Below are positions 1,032 through 21,215 of a stretch of 64,000 nt of DNA, piece by piece. Position 1 is the stretch's first letter. Each line of letters opens with the position of its first letter. Source of the DNA: a virus. Where the stretch lies: positions 12,344-76,343 of the IMG/VR virus record IMGVR_UViG_2820089333_000004; one strand, 5' to 3'. The notes below the pieces were generated by a model. It did no database searches. It saw only the letters and a list, made by a program, of their open reading frames with translations, and was not told the origin of the DNA. The position numbers and the translations under genes were made by a program.

Positions 1032-1448
1032 ATGCCGAAGATCGTGTCTCGACGCCGACATGAGCGCAACGGCAAGTTCTACGGCCTCTGGCTGGAGTTC
1101 GACAGCGGCGAAAAGCTCTATGTTGCCTACCGCAAGGGCGTTGGACTTCGCACCACGGGCTACTTCCAAAAGACAAATTCCTGGTGCATCGACACCATGA
1201 CGCTCAACCACGCCACCGCTACGGGCGTGAAGTGGATCGCGGTCATCCACGATGTAGGCAAAGGGACGCGACACTATTACTCGACGCCCATCGAGGATTT
1301 TTACGGCCCGCGCTCCGGGGTTCATAGCGAAGGCAGCACCAGACAGCGGTTCTTGCCACGCGCCTTCTGGCTGAACAATCCCTACACTGATCCAGAGTTG
1401 ATCGAAAAGAAGGTCAAGATCGCCGGGCGTGTTGCCAGAAAAATATAG
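1032..1448 (+). CDS. hypothetical protein
   Basis: ATG 1 nt after previous stop; phage-like codon usage. Confidence 0.65.
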   Translation: MPKIVSRRRHERNGKFYGLWLEFDSGEKLYVAYRKGVGLRTTGYFQKTNSWCIDTMTLNHATATGVKWIAVIHDVGKGTRHYYSTPIEDFYGPRSGVHSEGSTRQRFLPRAFWLNNPYTDPELIEKKVKIAGRVARKI

Positions 1449-1507
1449 TAAATCCTGACTATAATCAGTAGACTTGCGGTTATCGCATCACAAATCAGGG
1501 AGAATCA

Positions 1508-1915
1508 ATGACATTGACAACCGCCATGCTGTGTATGGCATTGAACATCTACCATGAATCTAGGGGAGAGCCGCTTGGCGGCCAACATGCTGTGGCGCAA
1601 GTAACCTTCAACCGCGCTGGCCGTGACCCGGACAGGGTGTGCGAGGAAGTGTTCAAGCCAAAGCAATTTTCGTGGGCCAACAAGCTGACAGCGGCAAAGG
1701 GGGTGGAGCGCGAGCGTTTGGCGCTGCACTATATGCCGAAAGACAAGAAGGCGTGGAATGTCGCTAGAGGCATCGCGTATCATACAATCAACGGCAATGT
1801 CGCTGACTTTACGAATGGTGCCAAGTTCTACCACGCCAATACGGTGCGCCCAGTGTGGCGTCACGAGTTCAAGTTGGTTGCTGTCATCGGCAATCATTTT
1901 TTTTACACTGCGTAA
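1508..1915 (+). CDS. SleB/Hydrolase_2 cell-wall hydrolase
   Basis: CMALNIYHESRGE, QFSW, FYHA..VRPVW, IGNHFFY motifs. Confidence 0.9.
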   Translation: MTLTTAMLCMALNIYHESRGEPLGGQHAVAQVTFNRAGRDPDRVCEEVFKPKQFSWANKLTAAKGVERERLALHYMPKDKKAWNVARGIAYHTINGNVADFTNGAKFYHANTVRPVWRHEFKLVAVIGNHFFYTA

Positions 1916-4335: not shown

Positions 4336-6281
4336 AGATCAACAAACTCTCCATCTCGAACTTCCTGACCATCGGCAGAGCCGACATCGAACTGGATGAT
4401 CGTGGACTGCTCTTGATTCAGGGCGTCAATGACGACGACCCGTCTGCCGAATCCAACGGCGCTGGCAAGTCCTCTGTGGTCGATGCGCTGTGTTGGGGCA
4501 TCTACGGAACAACCGCTCGCGGCGTGTCTGGTGACGCAGTGGTCAACAAGACGACCAAGAAGGATTGCTGCGTTCATATAACGATGACTGACTGCAACCA
4601 GCAATACCGCATCGTGCGCTGGCGCAAGGGAACGAACCACAAGAATAGCGTTTCTGTTTATGAGAAGGATTTGACGACCGGCGCCGAGATGGATCTGTCG
4701 AAGGGAACCGACAGAGAAACACAGGAGGTCATCGGCAAGGTGATGGGTTGTAGCCTCGACGTGTTCATGGCCGCCGTCTATGCGGGCCAGGAACGAATGC
4801 CCGATCTGCCGGGTATGACCGATAAGATGCTCAAGACGCTGATTGAGGAAGCTGCTGGCGTTGAAGTGCTGACCGAGGCTTATGCAACGGTTCGTGACCG
4901 CTACAACAGGCAGAAGTCCATTGTCGATGCGCTGGCGGCAACGCAAACCACCGCTATCGGCAACGGTGCGCGCCTGTCCAACGAGGTTGCGCAGTTGGAG
5001 GTCAACTCGGAAGATTTCGAGAAGGGTCGGCGGGATCGTGCGAAAGCCGAGCTTGCCAAGACGATCCCGATCAATGATGAAATCAGCCGCGCCACGACCG
5101 CGCTCAAGACATGGGACGAAGCCGCCAGCCGCGTCGATCTGGACAAGATCGACGCGAAACTCAAGGCGCACAAAACCGAAGAGGCTGAACGTAACAGGCT
5201 GGATACGATTGTCCGTGCGCTTGACATGCAGGTGGCGTCGGCCAAGTCGGCTGTCGCGCTCAAGAAGCGCGAAACGGACGCCGCAGAAGCGTCGCTCAAG
5301 AGCATCGAGGAGCAGATCGGCAAGCCGTGCGGTGAGTGTGGCAAGGTCTATTGCGAACACGACATGGAAGCGGCTCGCAAGGCTCGTCAGGAAACCATCG
5401 CCGAACTCAAGAAAACTCTGCTGACCGCCGCGAGTGAGGCAAAAGCGCTGGTTGCAAGGGCGAACGAAGCGCAAGAGAGCGCCGTGAAGTTCAAAGCGGG
5501 CATGACCGACGTGACCGCTGTGGCGCTGCGACAACGCGAATTGAGCAACCTGCTGAATTCGATTGATGCAAGTAAGCGCATGATCGAATCGAAGCGCAAG
5601 GACATCGAAAACATCAAGGCGGTTGCGAACGCAAAGTTAACCGAGACGAACCCCTGGACGAAGGCGGTTGAGTCGAAGCGTCAGGAAATCAGGCACAACG
5701 ATGCGACACTCTCGGAGATGTCAGAACGTATCGGCAAGGCGGGCGAGGAACTGGAACTGCTGGCCGACGCGGTGAAGGTATTTGGCCCCGCCGGTGTTCG
5801 CGCCCACATCCTCGACACTGTGACGCCTTACCTGAACGATCGGACGCGGGATTATCTCGGTGCGTTGGCCGATGGGAACATTCACGCGACCTGGACGACG
5901 CTTGCCAAGACGGCGAAGGGTGAACTCAAGGAAAAATTCAACATCGGCGTGACCAACGACAAGGGCGCCGAGTCCTTCGCGGGTCTGTCTGGTGGCGAGA
6001 AGCGCAAGGTGCGACTGGCGACGGCAATGGCCTTGCAGGACATGGTGGCAAGTAGGGCAATCAAGCCTATCGACATCTTCGTCGCCGACGAGGTAGATCA
6101 CGCTCTCGACGAAGCCGGCCTGGAGCGACTGATGGGCATTCTTGACCGCAAGGCCCGCGAGCGCGGCACTGTGCTGGTCATCAGCCACAACTCACTGTCT
6201 GACTGGATCGACTCCGTTATCACGGTGACAAAAGCTGCCGGCCTCGCTACGGTAAGCGGCGCGGTGGCGCGTGGATTTTGA
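4332..6281 (+). CDS. sbcC: SbcC/Rad50-like SMC ATPase
   Basis: Walker A NGAGKSS, coiled coil with CGEC Zn hook, LSGGEK signature, Walker B FVADE; ATGA overlap. Confidence 0.92.
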   Translation: MKINKLSISNFLTIGRADIELDDRGLLLIQGVNDDDPSAESNGAGKSSVVDALCWGIYGTTARGVSGDAVVNKTTKKDCCVHITMTDCNQQYRIVRWRKGTNHKNSVSVYEKDLTTGAEMDLSKGTDRETQEVIGKVMGCSLDVFMAAVYAGQERMPDLPGMTDKMLKTLIEEAAGVEVLTEAYATVRDRYNRQKSIVDALAATQTTAIGNGARLSNEVAQLEVNSEDFEKGRRDRAKAELAKTIPINDEISRATTALKTWDEAASRVDLDKIDAKLKAHKTEEAERNRLDTIVRALDMQVASAKSAVALKKRETDAAEASLKSIEEQIGKPCGECGKVYCEHDMEAARKARQETIAELKKTLLTAASEAKALVARANEAQESAVKFKAGMTDVTAVALRQRELSNLLNSIDASKRMIESKRKDIENIKAVANAKLTETNPWTKAVESKRQEIRHNDATLSEMSERIGKAGEELELLADAVKVFGPAGVRAHILDTVTPYLNDRTRDYLGALADGNIHATWTTLAKTAKGELKEKFNIGVTNDKGAESFAGLSGGEKRKVRLATAMALQDMVASRAIKPIDIFVADEVDHALDEAGLERLMGILDRKARERGTVLVISHNSLSDWIDSVITVTKAAGLATVSGAVARGF

Positions 6282-17348: not shown

Positions 17349-17816
17349 GTGAAACTGAACCAATACCAAAAGCAGGCGTTCGTGCGGGCTGTCATGGATG
17401 ACACGCCGTTTCCGAGTGACGAACAGATCAAGGACGAGGTGCAGGCAGCGGTGGTTGAGGCCATGTCGTCGGCGGTGCGTGAAGTTTATCGGATCGCACC
17501 GAATGCACTTGCGACTAATACCGCTTGCGTCTGTCTGAGCTACTACAGCACCAGATTTGTTGTTGGCGATGTCGACCTCCACCGTGTGACGCAACCTTGG
17601 ACCGAGCGCTTGAGGAAACGCGCGGAAGCAAAGAATCAACTGGAAGGTGTCGTCAATGGCTGTAGCACGCTGGCGCAACTGAAAAAGATGCTGCCGGAGT
17701 TTGAAAAATACATGCCGAGCGAAACGATGCCGACTAAGAATCTGCCAGTTATCGCCAACATCGTCACGTCGCTGACCGAGCTTGGCTGGCCGAAGGGCGC
17801 AGAGGTGGCGGCATGA
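17349..17816 (+). CDS. Nmad5-like (nucleotide-modification-associated domain 5) protein
   Basis: C-terminal LEGVVNGCSTLAQLKKMLPEFEKYMP pattern; operator-promoter at 17288. Confidence 0.65.
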   Translation: MKLNQYQKQAFVRAVMDDTPFPSDEQIKDEVQAAVVEAMSSAVREVYRIAPNALATNTACVCLSYYSTRFVVGDVDLHRVTQPWTERLRKRAEAKNQLEGVVNGCSTLAQLKKMLPEFEKYMPSETMPTKNLPVIANIVTSLTELGWPKGAEVAA

Positions 17817-18376
17817 GCATCGAGCAAGAAATTCAAGCCAGGGGTCTGACCGCGCCGCGTATCACGCCAGATGACATCGAGGCGAACATCATGGGCGAAG
17901 TCTATTTCACCGCTTTCGATGGCAGCACCAGAGGGGCGGACGTGCGTGTCACGCCGGACTTCGACAAAGAGGTGTTTGACACATCCTTGAGCCTACTCAC
18001 CATCTGCGTCCTCGTTCTTCGCAACGGCTTCACCGTCACTGGCGAATCCGCTTGCGTCTCTCCAGGAAACTTCGACGTCACCGCTGGCCGCGCAATTGCC
18101 CGCCAGAACGCTATCGACAAAGTGTGGCCGCTGATGGGCTACGCGCTGAAGGAAAAGCTGGCGAAGGAAAAGGGCGATTGGTTCGACCGCCTGCTGGAAG
18201 AGCGGGACGAATTGGCGGAGCGCATCGAGAAACTTGAGACTTTTCTGGATTTAACCGTAATCAGCGACCCTCAACGGAAGCGTCTGAATGCCCAACACGC
18301 GGTCATGAGCCAATATCACGACATGCTCGATGACCGCATCGGCGATGCCGCACTCGAAAGGAGTTCCAATGTCTGA
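17813..18376 (+). CDS. Phage_gp49_66-like domain fused to crAss001_48-like coiled coil
   Basis: APRITPDDIEA..LTICVLVLRNGFTVTGESACVSPGNFD; DRLLEERDELAERIEKL..Q...M..Y..ML..RI. Confidence 0.75.
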   Translation: MSIEQEIQARGLTAPRITPDDIEANIMGEVYFTAFDGSTRGADVRVTPDFDKEVFDTSLSLLTICVLVLRNGFTVTGESACVSPGNFDVTAGRAIARQNAIDKVWPLMGYALKEKLAKEKGDWFDRLLEERDELAERIEKLETFLDLTVISDPQRKRLNAQHAVMSQYHDMLDDRIGDAALERSSNV

Positions 18377-18677
18377 ATTTGCATGCCCTGTGGTGCGGCT
18401 CTGGATTGAGCCTCACCCGAACGCCGACGCCATCGAGATTGCCCGCGTCGGCGATTATCAATCCATCGTCAAGAAAGGCCAGTTCCGTGACGGTGATTTG
18501 GCCATCTATGTCCCGGAGCAGGCTGTGCTGCCGGAGTGGTTGCTGAAAGGCGCCGACCTTTGGGACGAGGACAAACAAAAAGGAACGCTTTCTGGTTCGC
18601 TTGGCAACCGCGTCAGGGCGACGCGGATCAGGGGGGTCGTTTCTCAAGGGCTTGTTTTGCCTCTCATTGCTGCATAA
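18369..18677 (+). CDS. RNA ligase (DRB0094-like), N-terminal fragment
   Basis: IEPHPNADAIEIARV.DYQSIVKKGQF..GDLAIYVPEQAVLP..RIRGVVSQGLVLP then TAA. Confidence 0.85.
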   Translation: MSEFACPVVRLWIEPHPNADAIEIARVGDYQSIVKKGQFRDGDLAIYVPEQAVLPEWLLKGADLWDEDKQKGTLSGSLGNRVRATRIRGVVSQGLVLPLIAA

Positions 18678-18691
18678 CTAATGGACGACAA

Positions 18692-19564
18692 ATGCTCATC
18701 TATCTTCTGACCAACATTCGTAACGGTAAGGTTTATGTCGGTCAAACAAAATCGCTCGATGGTCGGATGCGGCGTCACTTGAACGAGGTGCGTCGTGGCA
18801 CTAACCGCCACTTGTATGACGCGATTCGCAAGTATGGAGCTGATGTGTTCCGTGTCGAGGTGATCGAGAAAGTGTCCGACCTAGAAGCTGACGACGCCGA
18901 GTGCATGTGGATTGAATTCTACAGCTCGAACAATCGTGAGTTTGGCTACAACATGACGAAGGGCGGTGGAGGCGGTGACACCTTTACCAACCACCCAAAA
19001 AAGGAAGAAATCCGAAAGAAGCATCAAGCGCGAGAATGGACGGGAGAGCAGCGCGAGAAGTTTTCCGCCTCGATGGTAGGTAGAAAACGCGAGCCGTTCT
19101 CCAAAGAGTGGAGAGAGAAGATTCGTCAGAGCCTTATTGAATCAGGTTGCCGCCCTCCGATCAATTCGATGCCAGGAGAGTTGCATCCCATGTGGGGCAA
19201 AGCTCATTCGGAAGAAGCGAAGGCGAAAATCTCGGCAGCGCGAATGGGTAAGACTTACGAGCAGATTTTTGGCGAAAAGAAGGCGGCGGCGATGCGTGAG
19301 GCGAAGCGTCAAAAATATGTCGGGCCTGGCAATCCATTCTTCAAAGAGATGCCGATGCGAGAAATTTTGTTGGCGCTTATCGCTGAACCGAATCTGAAAA
19401 TGGACTCGCTTGCCAAGCAATTCAGAGTGTCGCGTCCAACGGTAAGTAAAAGACTGCGCGATTTGTTCGCCTGCGAGAACCTGCAAAGGCTCCGGGAGTG
19501 CGTATCGCCAGAAGAGTTTCAACAGCTTTGCAAGGAGAAAGTCAATGCAATGGAAGTTGCGTAA
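18692..19564 (+). mobile_element. GIY-YIG homing endonuclease with NUMOD3-like repeats and C-terminal HTH, inside the RNA ligase gene
   Basis: IYLLTNIRNGKVYVGQT..R...H; GYNMTKGG; HPMWGKAHSEEAKAKISAA. Confidence 0.92.
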
Positions 19565-20396
19565 TTTGGAAACAAGCGAAGATCGTATCTTTAACATTGG
19601 CGAGGACGCTGCTGAGTTCCTGGGTATCGTCAAACACGAGCCGTCGCTGCCTTCGCACATGCGGGGCAAGATCGTTGGTGTGGATCTGGACGCGACGGCC
19701 CAATACAACTTCGACAATCTCAAGAAAACGCCGAAGTTGTTCGACGATGGCGAGGATGTTGTCATTACCGAAAAGATTCACGGCACGTTCATGCAGATCG
19801 GTGTCGTGCCTTCGCGCATGGCGAACGAGAAATATTTCGCTGGCCGCGTGATTGTTTCAAGCAAGGGCATGGGCGCAAGGGGTTTCGTTCTCGATCACAA
19901 TGACGATACCAACCTTTACGCACAAGCGGCCAAGAAGCATGGGCTGCTCGAAGCAATGCTCGACACTTTTGGCGATGCTGCTGACCGTCAGAATGCCCCG
20001 ATTTTCATCTTCGGCGAGGTTTTTGGTCGAACCAACAGCGGCGCCGGAGTGCAGGACTTGACCTACGCCGACGAAGTGCTGGACTTCCGGGCGTTCGACA
20101 TCGCTGTTGGGAATCGCGGCGCGGAGCGCTACCTGGACTTTGATCACTTTGCCGCCTACTGCGACAAGATCAAGGTGCCGCATGTGCCGGTGTTGTATCG
20201 CGGCCCTTACTCAAAGGCTACCGTTCTTGAACACACCGATGGCAACACCACGCTTTCGGACAAAAAGCAGATTCGGGAAGGCGTCGTGGTGAAGTCGGCG
20301 GTCGAGTCCAGACACTCGCTGTTCGGTCGCAAGATCGCCAAGAGCATCAGTGAGGCTTACTTGCTGCGGAAAGGAAACGCAACTGAGTTCAACTAA
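19545..20396 (+). CDS. RNA ligase (DRB0094/Rnl2-like), catalytic C-terminal fragment
   Basis: GEDAAEFLGIVKHEP, motif I TEKIHGT, FGEVFG, AFDI, REGVVVK, KSISEAYLL; AAGGAG RBS inside endonuclease gene. Confidence 0.88.
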   Translation: MQWKLRNLETSEDRIFNIGEDAAEFLGIVKHEPSLPSHMRGKIVGVDLDATAQYNFDNLKKTPKLFDDGEDVVITEKIHGTFMQIGVVPSRMANEKYFAGRVIVSSKGMGARGFVLDHNDDTNLYAQAAKKHGLLEAMLDTFGDAADRQNAPIFIFGEVFGRTNSGAGVQDLTYADEVLDFRAFDIAVGNRGAERYLDFDHFAAYCDKIKVPHVPVLYRGPYSKATVLEHTDGNTTLSDKKQIREGVVVKSAVESRHSLFGRKIAKSISEAYLLRKGNATEFN

Positions 20397-20456
20397 CTGG
20401 CCGAGCTTGCTTTGGCCGTGTGATATAGTCAGTCCTTACTAGACAAAGGAGAAGTT

Positions 20457-20672
20457 ATGGCAGTAGAGGAAAACGAGATAGGTTTTCATTCGGCGCTCGA
20501 ACACATCGTCGGCGCAATGGGTATGAGCGCGAAGGAGGCGGAAGCCTTCTTGAAGAGCAAGCTGGCCGATGGCTCGCTGTCGCTGACCGGCGATGACGGA
20601 CTTCATCTGACCCCGGCGCAGTTTGCTGAACGGGTTGCCGCGCTGCCCGATGCCGAAGCGGTGTCGGCATGA
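20457..20672 (+). CDS. hypothetical protein
   Basis: AAGGAG RBS after operator at 20426. Confidence 0.7.
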   Translation: MAVEENEIGFHSALEHIVGAMGMSAKEAEAFLKSKLADGSLSLTGDDGLHLTPAQFAERVAALPDAEAVSA

Positions 20673-20741
20673 TCGTCGGTGGTGGAAACTCGACACCACT
20701 GATTAACTTGCCGAGATAACGCCTGTTTCGACGCTTTAGTA

Positions 20742-20776
20742 TAGCGGTTAATCGGTCAATGACTGATTAACCGCTA
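20742..20776. repeat. 35-bp near-perfect palindrome
   Basis: TAGCGGTTAATCGGTCA-a-TGACTGATTAACCGCTA, one G/T mismatch. Confidence 0.9.
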
Positions 20777-20816
20777 AATCAAATCGTTGAAACTGTTTTA
20801 TGGAAAGGATAAAGAG

Positions 20817-21215
20817 ATGGGGACGCAATCTGTGACTGCTGTTTATGGCGAATACGATGACACGCTGGTCAGGATGTGTCACCAGTGTGACGGCTCGCCT
20901 AGTGAGCATGGTCTTGAATTGGCCGAATTTCTCGACGGAAAGAAGTTTGTGGACGGCTTTGGTTTCGGCGAGGAAAGGGAAAACACCTTCAATGGCGAGG
21001 GTGATCTGGCCGCGCAGATTGTGGCTCATTTCAAGAAGGGGCCGGGTGGCGTTTATCTGATTGCGGACGAGTGTTTTGGCGAGGAGTTTAGTTATCACAT
21101 TCGCTTGATTGTTGATTATCTGGAGATTACCGTGATTGATCGTGATGGCCTCGATATTTTTACGGGTAACGTGGCCGAGTTCAAGTTTTGGTGCCAAGAG
21201 GCGAAAGCAAAATGA
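20817..21215 (+). CDS. hypothetical phage protein
   Basis: MGTQS..HQCDGSPSEHGLELAEFL conserved-looking N-terminus. Confidence 0.7.
   Translation: MGTQSVTAVYGEYDDTLVRMCHQCDGSPSEHGLELAEFLDGKKFVDGFGFGEERENTFNGEGDLAAQIVAHFKKGPGGVYLIADECFGEEFSYHIRLIVDYLEITVIDRDGLDIFTGNVAEFKFWCQEAKAK

Follow-up and report, generated by a model that had tools for sequence, protein, structure and literature searches.

The RNA ligase encoded at this locus, in a phage or phage-plasmid of ~117-130 kb, derives from the Rnl5/TIGR02306 family by a split and is not a canonical one-chain member. We consider it likely, from sequence comparison, that an endonuclease cassette split the gene and that its separately translated pieces assemble into an active two-chain ligase. 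In the window, as we call the whole 64,000-nucleotide stretch that was analyzed, three ORFs read base for base encode an OB piece, a GIY-YIG endonuclease and a nucleotidyltransferase piece (102, 290 and 283 aa, respectively), with the following features.

18358..18363, + strand: RBS of the N fragment, AAGGAG, 5 nt ahead of the ATG (direct sequence read)
18369..18677, + strand: N fragment, 102 aa, ATG at 18369 and TAA at 18675-18677 (PF21189, TIGR02306)
18678..18691, + strand: spacer of 14 nt from the N-fragment stop to the endonuclease start (sequence read)
18692..19564, + strand: GIY-YIG homing endonuclease gene, 290 aa, ATG at 18692 and TAA at 19562-19564 (Pfam, TIGR01453, phrog_314)
19506..19564, + strand: restart module, the 3' end of the cassette (DNA alignment and junction listing, all lineages)
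19532..19537, + strand: RBS of the C fragment, AAGGAG, 7 nt ahead of the ATG at 19545 and within the endonuclease coding sequence
19545..20396, + strand: C fragment, 283 aa, ATG at 19545 and TAA at 20394-20396 (PF09414, TIGR02306)
19548..19595, + strand: C-fragment head, residues 2-17 (QWKLRN / EDRIFN), a predicted beta-hairpin (AF2 strands)
19632..19634, + strand: Lys30 codon (in VKHEP), equivalent to NgrRnl Lys121 (profile alignment to NgrRnl 6VT4/5COT)
19773..19775, + strand: Lys77 codon, motif I (KxHG) adenylylation nucleophile (invariant column in 60 homologues; homology to DraRnl/NgrRnl)

The preliminary description of this DNA had the N fragment stopping after SQGLVLP (LIAA*), the endonuclease starting 14 nt past that stop and the catalytic half carrying its own AAGGAG inside the endonuclease 3' end, all of which our reading confirmed (ORF end ...SQGLVLPLIAA*, spacer at 18678-18691, RBS at 19532-19537). 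The endonuclease and C-fragment ORFs overlap by 20 nt, and the start of the N fragment overlaps the 3' end of a gp49/Sequestin-family gene (17813-18376), which gave the sole match when the region was compared by blastn with GenBank phages. Apart from the split Rnl5 gene, the assembly has no PF09414 ligase, and no RtcB lies on the phage contig.

An Rnl5-type ligase in two pieces

The N piece matches the PF21189 OB fold (E 1.2e-16) up to the model's last position, covers positions 9-95 of TIGR02306 (E 3.7e-26), aligns with residues 1 to ~100 of intact homologues and ends in a 5-aa tail, PLIAA, after SQGLVL. The C piece matches PF09414 (E 3e-27), covers TIGR02306 positions 107-341 (E 1.6e-35) and comprises the complete nucleotidyltransferase domain, preceded by the ~37 aa that end the Rnl5 N module. 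It has the motif I lysine and motifs III, IIIa, IV and V of the family, its signature sequences being TEKIHGT (motif I), GEVFG, FRAFD, EGVVV and RKIAKS, with K77 and the last four motifs in invariant columns when 60 homologues are aligned, and its ORF stops 21 residues past RKIAKS, without a C-terminal domain. Together the pieces amount to 385 aa (102 + 283), the length of an intact homologue; intact relatives have 385-395 aa and ~80% identity. Neither piece reaches the TIGR02306 equivalog cut-off of 151 bits by itself (91.8 and 122.6 bits), compared with 207 bits for the intact homologue P0003. The matches to PF21189, PF09414 and TIGR02306, all well outside the range of chance, bear out the earlier assignment to a DRB0094-family RNA ligase in two genes, and the alignment to intact homologues that had been proposed alongside it puts the break between SQGLxL and the G-D-D-x-AEFLG block.

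The closest characterized enzymes, DraRnl (DRB0094) and NgrRnl (PDB 5COT, 6VT4; PMC1807946, PMC4408790, PMC7261155), likewise join an N-terminal OB module to a C-terminal nucleotidyltransferase with no C-terminal appendage. The locus ligase is related to NgrRnl by profile comparison (E 1e-14), with a Foldseek E of 7e-18 for the intact homologue, but it is only ~20% identical to NgrRnl and consists of two polypeptides instead of one, with the Lys121 equivalent on the catalytic chain and the remaining OB module on the other. The locus clade also differs from both enzymes in having its own hairpin insertion after the OB barrel. By its Rnl5 membership, the putative activity of the ligase is the ATP-dependent sealing of 3'-OH RNA / 5'-PO4 nicks via lysyl-AMP.

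The break falls inside the N module

Where exactly was the ligase cut? In DraRnl and NgrRnl, the N module as delimited by experiment spans 126 aa (PMC1807946, PMC7261155). In NgrRnl it includes Lys121, through which the OB module contacts the ATP gamma-phosphate (PMC7261155); in the profile alignment the equivalent of Lys121 is Lys30 of the C fragment. The break itself comes where the Pfam OB model ends, and the sequence there is hypervariable. In the AF2 model of the isolated C piece (mean pLDDT 87), the head forms strands at 2-7 and 12-17 at moderate confidence (pLDDT 64-72), and the equivalent hairpin, at 106-124, is confident in the AlphaFold model of intact P0003. The codons of the first hairpin strand fall where the C-fragment and endonuclease ORFs overlap.

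Because the N module extends over 126 aa, the Lys121 equivalent sits on the C piece and an ordered hairpin follows the break, the split falls within the N module, in a hypervariable loop. The preliminary description had placed the break at the domain linker, which holds insofar as it coincides with the end of the Pfam OB model in hypervariable sequence but not insofar as the position is inside the 126-aa module and is followed by an ordered hairpin; a floppy interdomain linker as break site is rejected by the AlphaFold models and the Lys30 alignment, in which the loop precedes an ordered beta-hairpin within the N module. The beta-hairpin, the helix and the Lys121 equivalent on the catalytic piece probably dock the OB piece.

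Endonuclease and restart module

The endonuclease matches PF01541 (GIY-YIG; 3e-10), NUMOD3 (PF07460; 9e-9) and, at its C-terminus, HTH_24 (PF13412; 6e-5), as well as TIGR01453 (3e-24) and phrog_314. It is 290 aa long in all four lineages in which the split gene occurs, with 168 of the 290 alignment columns invariant, including the GIY-YIG core blocks. Those of the three further lineages are 76, 74 and 68% identical to the window's and occupy the same position in split ligase genes, whereas no endonuclease in 50,697 GenBank phage records exceeds 37% identity, and a search of metagenome contigs with the endonuclease alignment returned only relatives at 33-41%.

The cassette occupies ~1 kb in place of ~129 nt of the intact gene. 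It supplies the tail and stop of the N piece, the endonuclease gene, and the RBS, ATG and ~18-residue head of the C piece, and in other lineages it carries a promoter: the spacer there is 56 nt with a promoter-like TTGCAA-18-TATAAT, whereas the window spacer has none. The restart module, kept in all split lineages, serves two frames: one gives the end of the endonuclease (..FQQLCKEK-NAME-A*), and the other holds the RBS of the C piece, its ATG and its first 6-7 codons (MQWKL-N). The N-piece tail reads PLIAA in the window and AMQPV in the other lineages, whereas the ~18-aa head of the C piece (MQWKL-N..E-R-F) is conserved in all four; neither this head nor the 5-aa N tail occurs in any of the 113 intact alleles. 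Searches by exact pattern for the ~36-nt restart module in viral and metagenome contigs gave no match, a blank that says little as the known L002 contig was missed too, and a 46-aa ORF upstream of the L002 restart module returned no record when looked up. The endonuclease would be expected to cut intact alleles (L092 or L095 type) close to the blocks coding for KAIKLRGVLSQGL or GDDxAEFLG, with the split allele immune.

Recurrence and homing

Separate samples gave six contigs (117-130 kb) with the same three ORFs, and the 102/290/283 layout, with its 20-nt overlap and AAGGAG, recurs in the three more diverged lineages, on >25 contigs from ENA, JGI and Logan assemblies, for 30 or more contigs in all. 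Natural pairs of nearly identical phages show filled and empty sites. Between split allele L088 and intact allele L092, 129 nt (L092 4252-4380) are swapped for 1026 nt, with flanks that are ~96% (upstream) and ~92% (downstream) identical, and the pair L087 and L095 shows the same pattern. One endonuclease protein, P0123, is identical across the 24 contigs that were read (it is listed in 25 blocks), and the ligase alleles that carry it diverge away from the cassette. Switch points of co-conversion lie ~195 nt upstream of the N stop in L088 and ~60 nt past the endonuclease stop in L086 and L087.

The ligase tree agrees with this picture of movement: the four split alleles are scattered, three of them each sister to an intact allele, and the starred branches force at least three changes. 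Endonuclease and N-piece identities pair L084 with L086, and C-piece identities pair the window with L086. The identical endonuclease in different ligase alleles and the co-conversion tracts indicate, at the level of sequence, that the cassette has spread recently by homing, co-converting ligase flanks into intact alleles of related phages, and that it is still mobile. Loss of the endonuclease as the origin of the intact alleles is unlikely, since none of them bears a footprint of the split-type tail or head.

Assembly or decay of the split ligase

All three ORFs are under purifying selection. For the N piece, dN/dS among the window, L084 and L086/L088 lineages lies at 0.15-0.24, with 0.40 in the near-identical pair L086-L088; the endonuclease gives 0.08-0.15 and the C piece 0.13-0.29 (dS ~1). 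Cassette-linked codons, which travel with the endonuclease, have a pN/pS of 0.31-0.44. The window allele, which has no close intact relative and sits on a private branch of 0.24 in the ligase tree, keeps the family residue at 106 of 108 positions, counted as the columns with >=95% conservation among 113 intact proteins; its two deviations compare with an average of 1.2 and a maximum of 5 in the intact proteins themselves. From this selection, the conserved residues and the recurrence of the layout, we infer that the pieces assemble non-covalently and are active, with the N piece acting in trans as the preliminary description had supposed.

We propose that a free-standing GIY-YIG gene, as a cassette, settled in the hypervariable segment after the OB barrel of a gene for an Rnl5-type nick-sealing ligase. 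The three genes of the window would be co-transcribed, and the ligase pieces would be translated separately and associate non-covalently. The hairpin, helix and Lys30 segment of the catalytic piece would dock the OB barrel and thereby restore the complete N module, on which lysine adenylylation, step 1 of the reaction, depends. The requirement for this module can be gauged from truncated enzymes: DraRnl N-delta-126 retains ~10% of nick sealing and 4% of ligase-AMP formation with full step-3 activity (PMC1807946), and NgrRnl delta-N retains 4% activity (PMC7261155). An active two-chain ligase would make the endonuclease insertion near-neutral for the phage.

A stronger version of this proposal, which we advance tentatively and with some doubt, is that the cassette is a full 'neutralising kit', comprising a stop, a promoter in most lineages, an RBS, a start and the first hairpin strand, such that the C head completes the OB module by strand complementation. 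The RBS, the start codon and the first hairpin strand are all encoded out of frame within the 3' end of the endonuclease gene.

The main competing explanation is that the insertion crippled the ligase and that its halves persist through recent invasion, through residual or step-3 activity of the lone catalytic piece, or as a dispensable gene that is decaying. The ligase is evidently dispensable in some relatives, as several related phages have lost the gene by internal deletion or frameshift: three independent in-frame deletions take out the entire catalytic core, and a frameshifted ligase pseudogene stands on 18 contigs. The C halves of L084, L086 and L087 adjoin intact alleles on very short branches, as expected of recent invasion, and the intactness of these three split lineages may, on sequence grounds, reflect this recency only; moreover, as the activities of DraRnl N-delta-126 illustrate, a lone catalytic piece is not necessarily dead. 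Against decay, however, the window allele has kept its conserved positions despite its long private branch, and the cassette-linked codons of the N piece and C head are under purifying selection at saturating synonymous divergence. In addition, all four lineages retain both an N ORF of precisely 102 aa and a strong RBS ahead of the C ORF, and no split allele with a broken half was seen among the 30 or more contigs. On balance, we regard a crippled ligase as unlikely, if a serious contender.

Could the two pieces instead be rejoined into one ligase chain, by a cryptic group I/II intron or by atypical split-intein trans-splicing? GIY-YIG endonucleases of the TIGR01453 type ('group I intron endonuclease') are often intron-encoded, and in more distant relatives of the locus ligase genuine split inteins break the gene at motif I, with halves in L034, L038 and L061 that are recognisable from ORF reading. 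But a permissive Rfam scan of 17800-21000 (E <= 10) gave neither a group I nor a group II intron, and the non-coding sequence around the endonuclease ORF comes to 14 nt upstream and none downstream, on which grounds an intron is rejected. None of the three ORFs matches Hint/intein families; the N piece stops 5 residues past the OB barrel, the C piece opens with MQWKL, and the window has neither Hint blocks nor an HN-C/S/T junction, so that an intein or split intein is rejected as well. These negatives uphold the earlier observation that the locus has no room for a group I intron core and no intein residues. Since the conserved stop, RBS and ATG fit separate translation only, restoration of a single chain is very improbable.

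The weakest alternative, a chimeric contig or binning error that joined an endonuclease gene between ligase fragments, draws on the origin of the window in a metagenome-assembled genome of 255 contigs with 8% contamination, but the presence of the same three ORFs on six contigs from separate samples, and of the same architecture in three other lineages, means that the layout is not an assembly artefact, and we give this explanation practically no credence.

Comparison with known systems

The nearest parallel to the separately translated two-piece ligase is Aeromonas phage Aeh1, whose nrdA-a / mobE / nrdA-b arrangement was reportedly described by Friedrich et al. in 2007 as 'genes in pieces'. 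At both loci, a free-standing homing endonuclease gene lies inside a conserved enzyme gene, the gene that is contiguous in relatives is in two pieces, each with its own translation signals, short insertion-born sequences mark the break, and non-covalent assembly is thought to restore function, as we infer here. The choice of Aeh1 as precedent in the preliminary description was apt, given a free-standing endonuclease and two translated pieces with no intron or intein (Crona et al. 2011, PMC3045599). The differences are several: the host gene is an Rnl5 RNA ligase here and a ribonucleotide reductase in Aeh1, the endonuclease is GIY-YIG instead of the HNH mobE, and the break is in a hypervariable loop of the accessory OB module, not in the catalytic core. 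At our locus, the downstream piece also takes its restart signals and opening codons from within the endonuclease 3' end. Furthermore, whereas Aeh1 NrdA-a and NrdA-b assemble via insertion-derived tails (PMC3045599), the N-piece tail is not conserved at our locus, so there is no paired 'clasp'.

The endonuclease itself resembles the free-standing GIY-YIG enzymes of phages (T4 Seg proteins; I-TevI-like) in combining GIY-YIG, NUMOD3 and a C-terminal HTH, in its presence or absence at one site with co-conversion of the flanks, and in having its own promoter in three of the four lineages. It differs from them in lying inside a coding sequence and not between genes. The split-intein 'fractured genes' of Dassa et al. 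2009 (PMC2677866) likewise place an endonuclease gene between two ORFs of a phage enzyme, an arrangement that the more distant ligase relatives L034, L038 and L061 show at motif I, but the window has no intein halves, so religation of the chain is impossible. The passages of that article that were searched do not list RNA ligase among the fractured enzymes (PMC2677866). With the Rnl5 ligase, the known 'genes-in-pieces' phenomenon gains a new host gene.

Significance

Harm is the expected outcome when a free-standing homing endonuclease inserts within a gene, and to our knowledge Aeh1 NrdA is the one such case that has been worked out biochemically. The locus described here brings in Rnl5, an enzyme family for which assays, delta-N constructs and crystal structures are already at hand. 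The natural filled and empty pairs, with ~92-96% flank identity, the four diverged copies of the cassette and the co-conversion tracts make it a ready study system, suited to questions about how restart signals arise from the cassette's coding sequence, about the OB module in trans and about how far co-conversion reaches on each side. Within one family, Rnl5 shows three outcomes of selfish-element attack: the endonuclease split, the split-intein fracture at motif I and outright deletion. If the 'neutralising kit' proves true, it would be a third route, beside introns and inteins, to a harmless endonuclease insertion in coding sequence, and the locus would provide the first natural demonstration of an Rnl5 OB module driving lysine adenylylation in trans, and a stable two-chain ligase.

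An Rnl5 ligase gene divided by an endonuclease cassette

The Rnl5 (DraRnl/NgrRnl-type) RNA ligase gene in the window is physically split by a mobile GIY-YIG homing endonuclease cassette, which brings with it a stop codon, a ribosome-binding site (RBS) and an ATG, as well as a new head for the downstream piece.

Split ligase locus (ORF assignments from sequence reading and Pfam)
18369-18677, + strand: ORF1, N piece with OB fold, 102 aa
18678-18691, + strand: spacer between ORF1 and ORF2, 14 nt
18692-19564, + strand: ORF2, GIY-YIG endonuclease, 290 aa
19532-19537, + strand: AAGGAG of ORF3, ATG 7 nt further on
19545-20396, + strand: ORF3, catalytic piece, 283 aa

ORF1 starts 5 nt past an AAGGAG, overlaps the end of an upstream gp49/Sequestin-family gene, and terminates in ..SQGLVLPLIAA; ORF2 opens with MLIYLLTN..GKVYVGQT and contains both the RBS and the ATG of ORF3, which it overlaps by 20 nt. 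Pfam assigns ORF1 to the PHA02142 OB fold (E 1e-16, the match reaching the last model position), GIY-YIG, NUMOD3 and winged HTH domains to ORF2, and RNA_ligase PF09414 (E 3e-27) to ORF3; ORF2 also matches TIGR01453 and phrog_314 (homing endonuclease family). On the 341-position NCBIfam model TIGR02306 (RNA_lig_DRB0094), ORF1 covers positions 9-95 and ORF3 107-341, scoring 91.8 and 122.6 bits, each below the 151-bit cut-off, with one intact homologue at 207 bits. Among 5.8 billion proteins searched, more than 100 homologues carry both domains in one piece (370-430 aa), the closest about 80% identical to the catalytic piece; the two pieces sum to 385 aa (102 + 283), so no part of the ligase is missing. 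The preliminary description had read the layout correctly in every element, as the ORFs, RBS, spacer and domain matches confirm, and its exclusion of an intron and an intein also stands: a permissive Rfam scan of 17800-21000 (E <= 10) found no intron, and Pfam detected no Hint domain in the three ORFs.

The window's own version is present on six contigs of 117-130 kb. On contigs of sufficient length, three further endonucleases (P0122, P0123 and P0124; 76, 74 and 68% identical to the window's, all 290 aa) each have a 102-aa OB ORF on one side and a 283-aa ligase ORF on the other; the P0124 contig (L091, 1.1 kb) covers no more than the endonuclease and the first part of the catalytic piece. These lineages retain the 20-nt overlap and the AAGGAG. 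Their spacer is 56 nt and, in three lineages, is filled by a promoter-like TTGCAA-18-TATAAT with a TG extension (L086:3945-3974); the window spacer (18678-18691) resembles a deletion of about 42 nt from it. No promoter-like or terminator-like site lies between the window's three ORFs on the plus strand, which suggests that they are co-transcribed, and with the promoter-like site missing from the spacer the endonuclease, which has only a weak RBS, may depend on read-through transcription. On a 1087-bp contig (L002:1-228), the same restart module of about 55 nt precedes a catalytic piece of the type at split locus L084; 5' of it, in place of the GIY-YIG C-terminus, come an ORF of 46 aa and the last part of a further ORF (..REILNLAARNVGAM, then stop). 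This short contig may carry a degraded or replaced endonuclease with the restart module retained.

Position of the break

Where does the cassette cut the protein? Alignment to intact homologues, as the preliminary description had suggested, places the break between SQGLxL, which it directly follows, and G-(D/E)-D-x-AEFLG-x-VK-Y-EP, where the catalytic piece rejoins the family. Among 113 intact homologues the segment between these anchors is hypervariable in sequence and length (24-81 residues in nearly all). The SQG-KYEP segment shows little sequence conservation there, though it is predicted to form an ordered hairpin in the intact protein P0003; such variation is unusual for a structured element and is possibly tied to repeated endonuclease attack.

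The proposal that the break falls at the domain linker is imprecise: the segment in which it falls does not coincide with the domain boundary defined by biochemistry. The N module of DraRnl and NgrRnl comprises 126 aa, and its deletion reduces nick sealing to about 10% (DraRnl) or 4% (NgrRnl) and ligase-AMP formation to a few percent, leaving step 3 unaffected (PMC1807946, PMC7261155). NgrRnl Lys121, an OB-module residue, touches the ATP gamma-phosphate (PMC7261155); it lies in ITKWEPP, which profile alignment matches to VKYEP of this clade, making Lys30 of the window's catalytic piece its equivalent. The break falls at about TIGR02306 position 96-106, some 20-30 residues ahead of the delta-126 boundary. 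AlphaFold2 predicts a confident beta-hairpin in P0003 at 106-124, immediately past the break point (pLDDT blocks 93/79/93), and the same hairpin in the window's catalytic piece at residues 2-7 and 12-17 (pLDDT 64-72); the predicted fold of an intact homologue resembles NgrRnl (Foldseek E 7e-18; profile E 1e-14). Together, the delta-126 boundary, the Lys121 alignment, the TIGR02306 coordinates and the predicted hairpins place the cut within the N module, in a loop, so that the OB barrel is on one piece and the predicted hairpin, the next helix and the Lys121 equivalent are on the other.

Evidence for mobility

Filled and empty sites occur in near-identical backgrounds. The split locus L088 is about 96% identical to the intact locus L092 upstream of the insertion and about 92% downstream, and carries 1026 nt in place of 129 nt (L092:4252-4380); L087 and L095 show the same pattern. 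The P0123 protein is identical in 24 contigs read, and the surrounding ligase sequence varies: from about 80 nt into its ORF, the catalytic piece turns P0003-like in L086 and P0008-like in L087, and in L088 the OB piece resembles L092 over roughly the first 115 nt and the cassette from there on. These switches mark co-conversion tracts. Pairings by identity are discordant, the endonuclease and N piece joining L084 with L086 and the C piece joining the window with L086, which is consistent with co-conversion that is long upstream and short downstream.

In a catalytic-region tree (quick search with IQ-TREE, rooted at the midpoint, omitting 14 intact rows in which an anchor motif was not found), the split alleles do not group together: three of the four pair with an intact sister allele on a short branch, and the well-supported branches require at least three gains or losses. 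Because no remnant of a split-type tail or head is seen in any of the 113 intact homologues, spread by gain is likelier than repeated loss. Beside the insertion (window 18620-18665; L092:4252-4300), the peptide A-x-[RK]-L-R-G-V-L-S-Q-G is nearly equal in split and intact alleles, and almost every codon differs; this stretch could be a candidate recognition site, its divergence conferring immunity on filled alleles.

Does the two-piece ligase work?

We consider it probable that the pieces form an active two-chain ligase assembled non-covalently. The hairpin, helix and Lys30 segment of the catalytic chain would pack on the OB barrel as in one-piece enzymes, and the docked chains would thereby rebuild the module responsible in step 1 for orienting the pyrophosphate leaving group. 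Of the cases worked out so far, Aeh1 NrdA-a/NrdA-b comes closest; its activity requires the tails that arose with the insertion (PMC3045599). In split Rnl5, by contrast, conservation is confined to the head of the downstream piece (MQWKL-N..E-R-F, four lineages) and does not extend to the 5-residue tail on the upstream one.

That the split gene is instead crippled or only partly active seems unlikely, although three of the four split lineages appear recently invaded and the ligase is clearly dispensable in some relatives, where P0198, P0200 and P0202 each result from a separate in-frame deletion that fuses the N module with about 20 C-terminal residues, and P0199, present on 18 contigs, is a remnant with a frameshift.

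Decayed ligase genes in the same phage group
L100:3501-3986
L103:3501-3908
Protein P0202
L101/L102:3501-4164

The three in-frame deletions (..SHM-x-G joined to KIAKSVS..) take out motifs I-IV; judged by eye, a short GGTCGCA repeat may mark their ends.

Against a crippled gene, all three ORFs are under purifying selection between lineages (dN/dS 0.08-0.29 at dS ~1; the sole exception, 0.40, is the near-identical L086-L088 N-piece pair), and the cassette-linked codons (N 40-102, C 8-28) give pN/pS of 0.31-0.44, at near-saturated synonymous divergence. The window allele, on a branch of 0.24 and with no intact allele close to it, deviates at only two (L87I, D157N) of 108 columns at least 95% conserved in 113 intact proteins, which themselves deviate at 1.2 on average and at most 5. 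Its N piece carries Arg26, Gln31 and, at a +2 offset, Arg81 for Arg79, when ten listed positions mutated in DraRnl are matched by co-linear numbering rather than by aligning DraRnl; DraRnl K26R is fully active (PMC1807946). Split Rnl5 is also the sole PF09414 ligase of the assembly, and the phage contig lacks RtcB, the assembly's only RtcB match being on contig C110.

Phage context and other fractured ligases

Among cultured carriers of an intact homologue, Cupriavidus metallidurans plasmids of 106-107 kb come closest (55%); GenBank phage records hold no endonuclease more than 37%, and no ligase more than about 41%, identical to the window's. Phages with intact ligases have an RtcB gene as well, a few kb upstream (L092:10-1137; L095:1408-2574), and at L092:5252-7684 a NadR-like/NUDIX gene and NAMPT pair lies directly downstream of the ligase.

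More distant Rnl5 relatives in IMG/VR are fractured by split inteins exactly at motif I (between G and C of K-x-H-G-C), the N ORF ending in the intein N half and the C ORF opening with the C half (..V-H-N, then S/T).

Split-intein ligases and what lies between the intein halves
L061:4001-6457 (also L062): 300-aa full Vsr-like endonuclease ORF, 4852-5754
L038:4001-5818 (also L039): 99-aa remnant, 4804-5103
L034:4001-5685 (also L070): nothing

This arrangement is that described by Dassa et al. 2009 (PMC2677866); the fractured hosts named in the searched passages of that paper do not include an RNA ligase. The L061 contig (130 kb, viral) also bears a tmRNA gene (1225-1634, minus strand; RF00023, 59.9 bits, E 3e-21) about 2.4 kb from the fractured ligase.

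Full-text literature searches found no paper on a split Rnl5 ligase. Endonuclease-split genes as such are already known; the particular value of this locus lies in its population-level evidence of homing and in the restart module inside the endonuclease gene.
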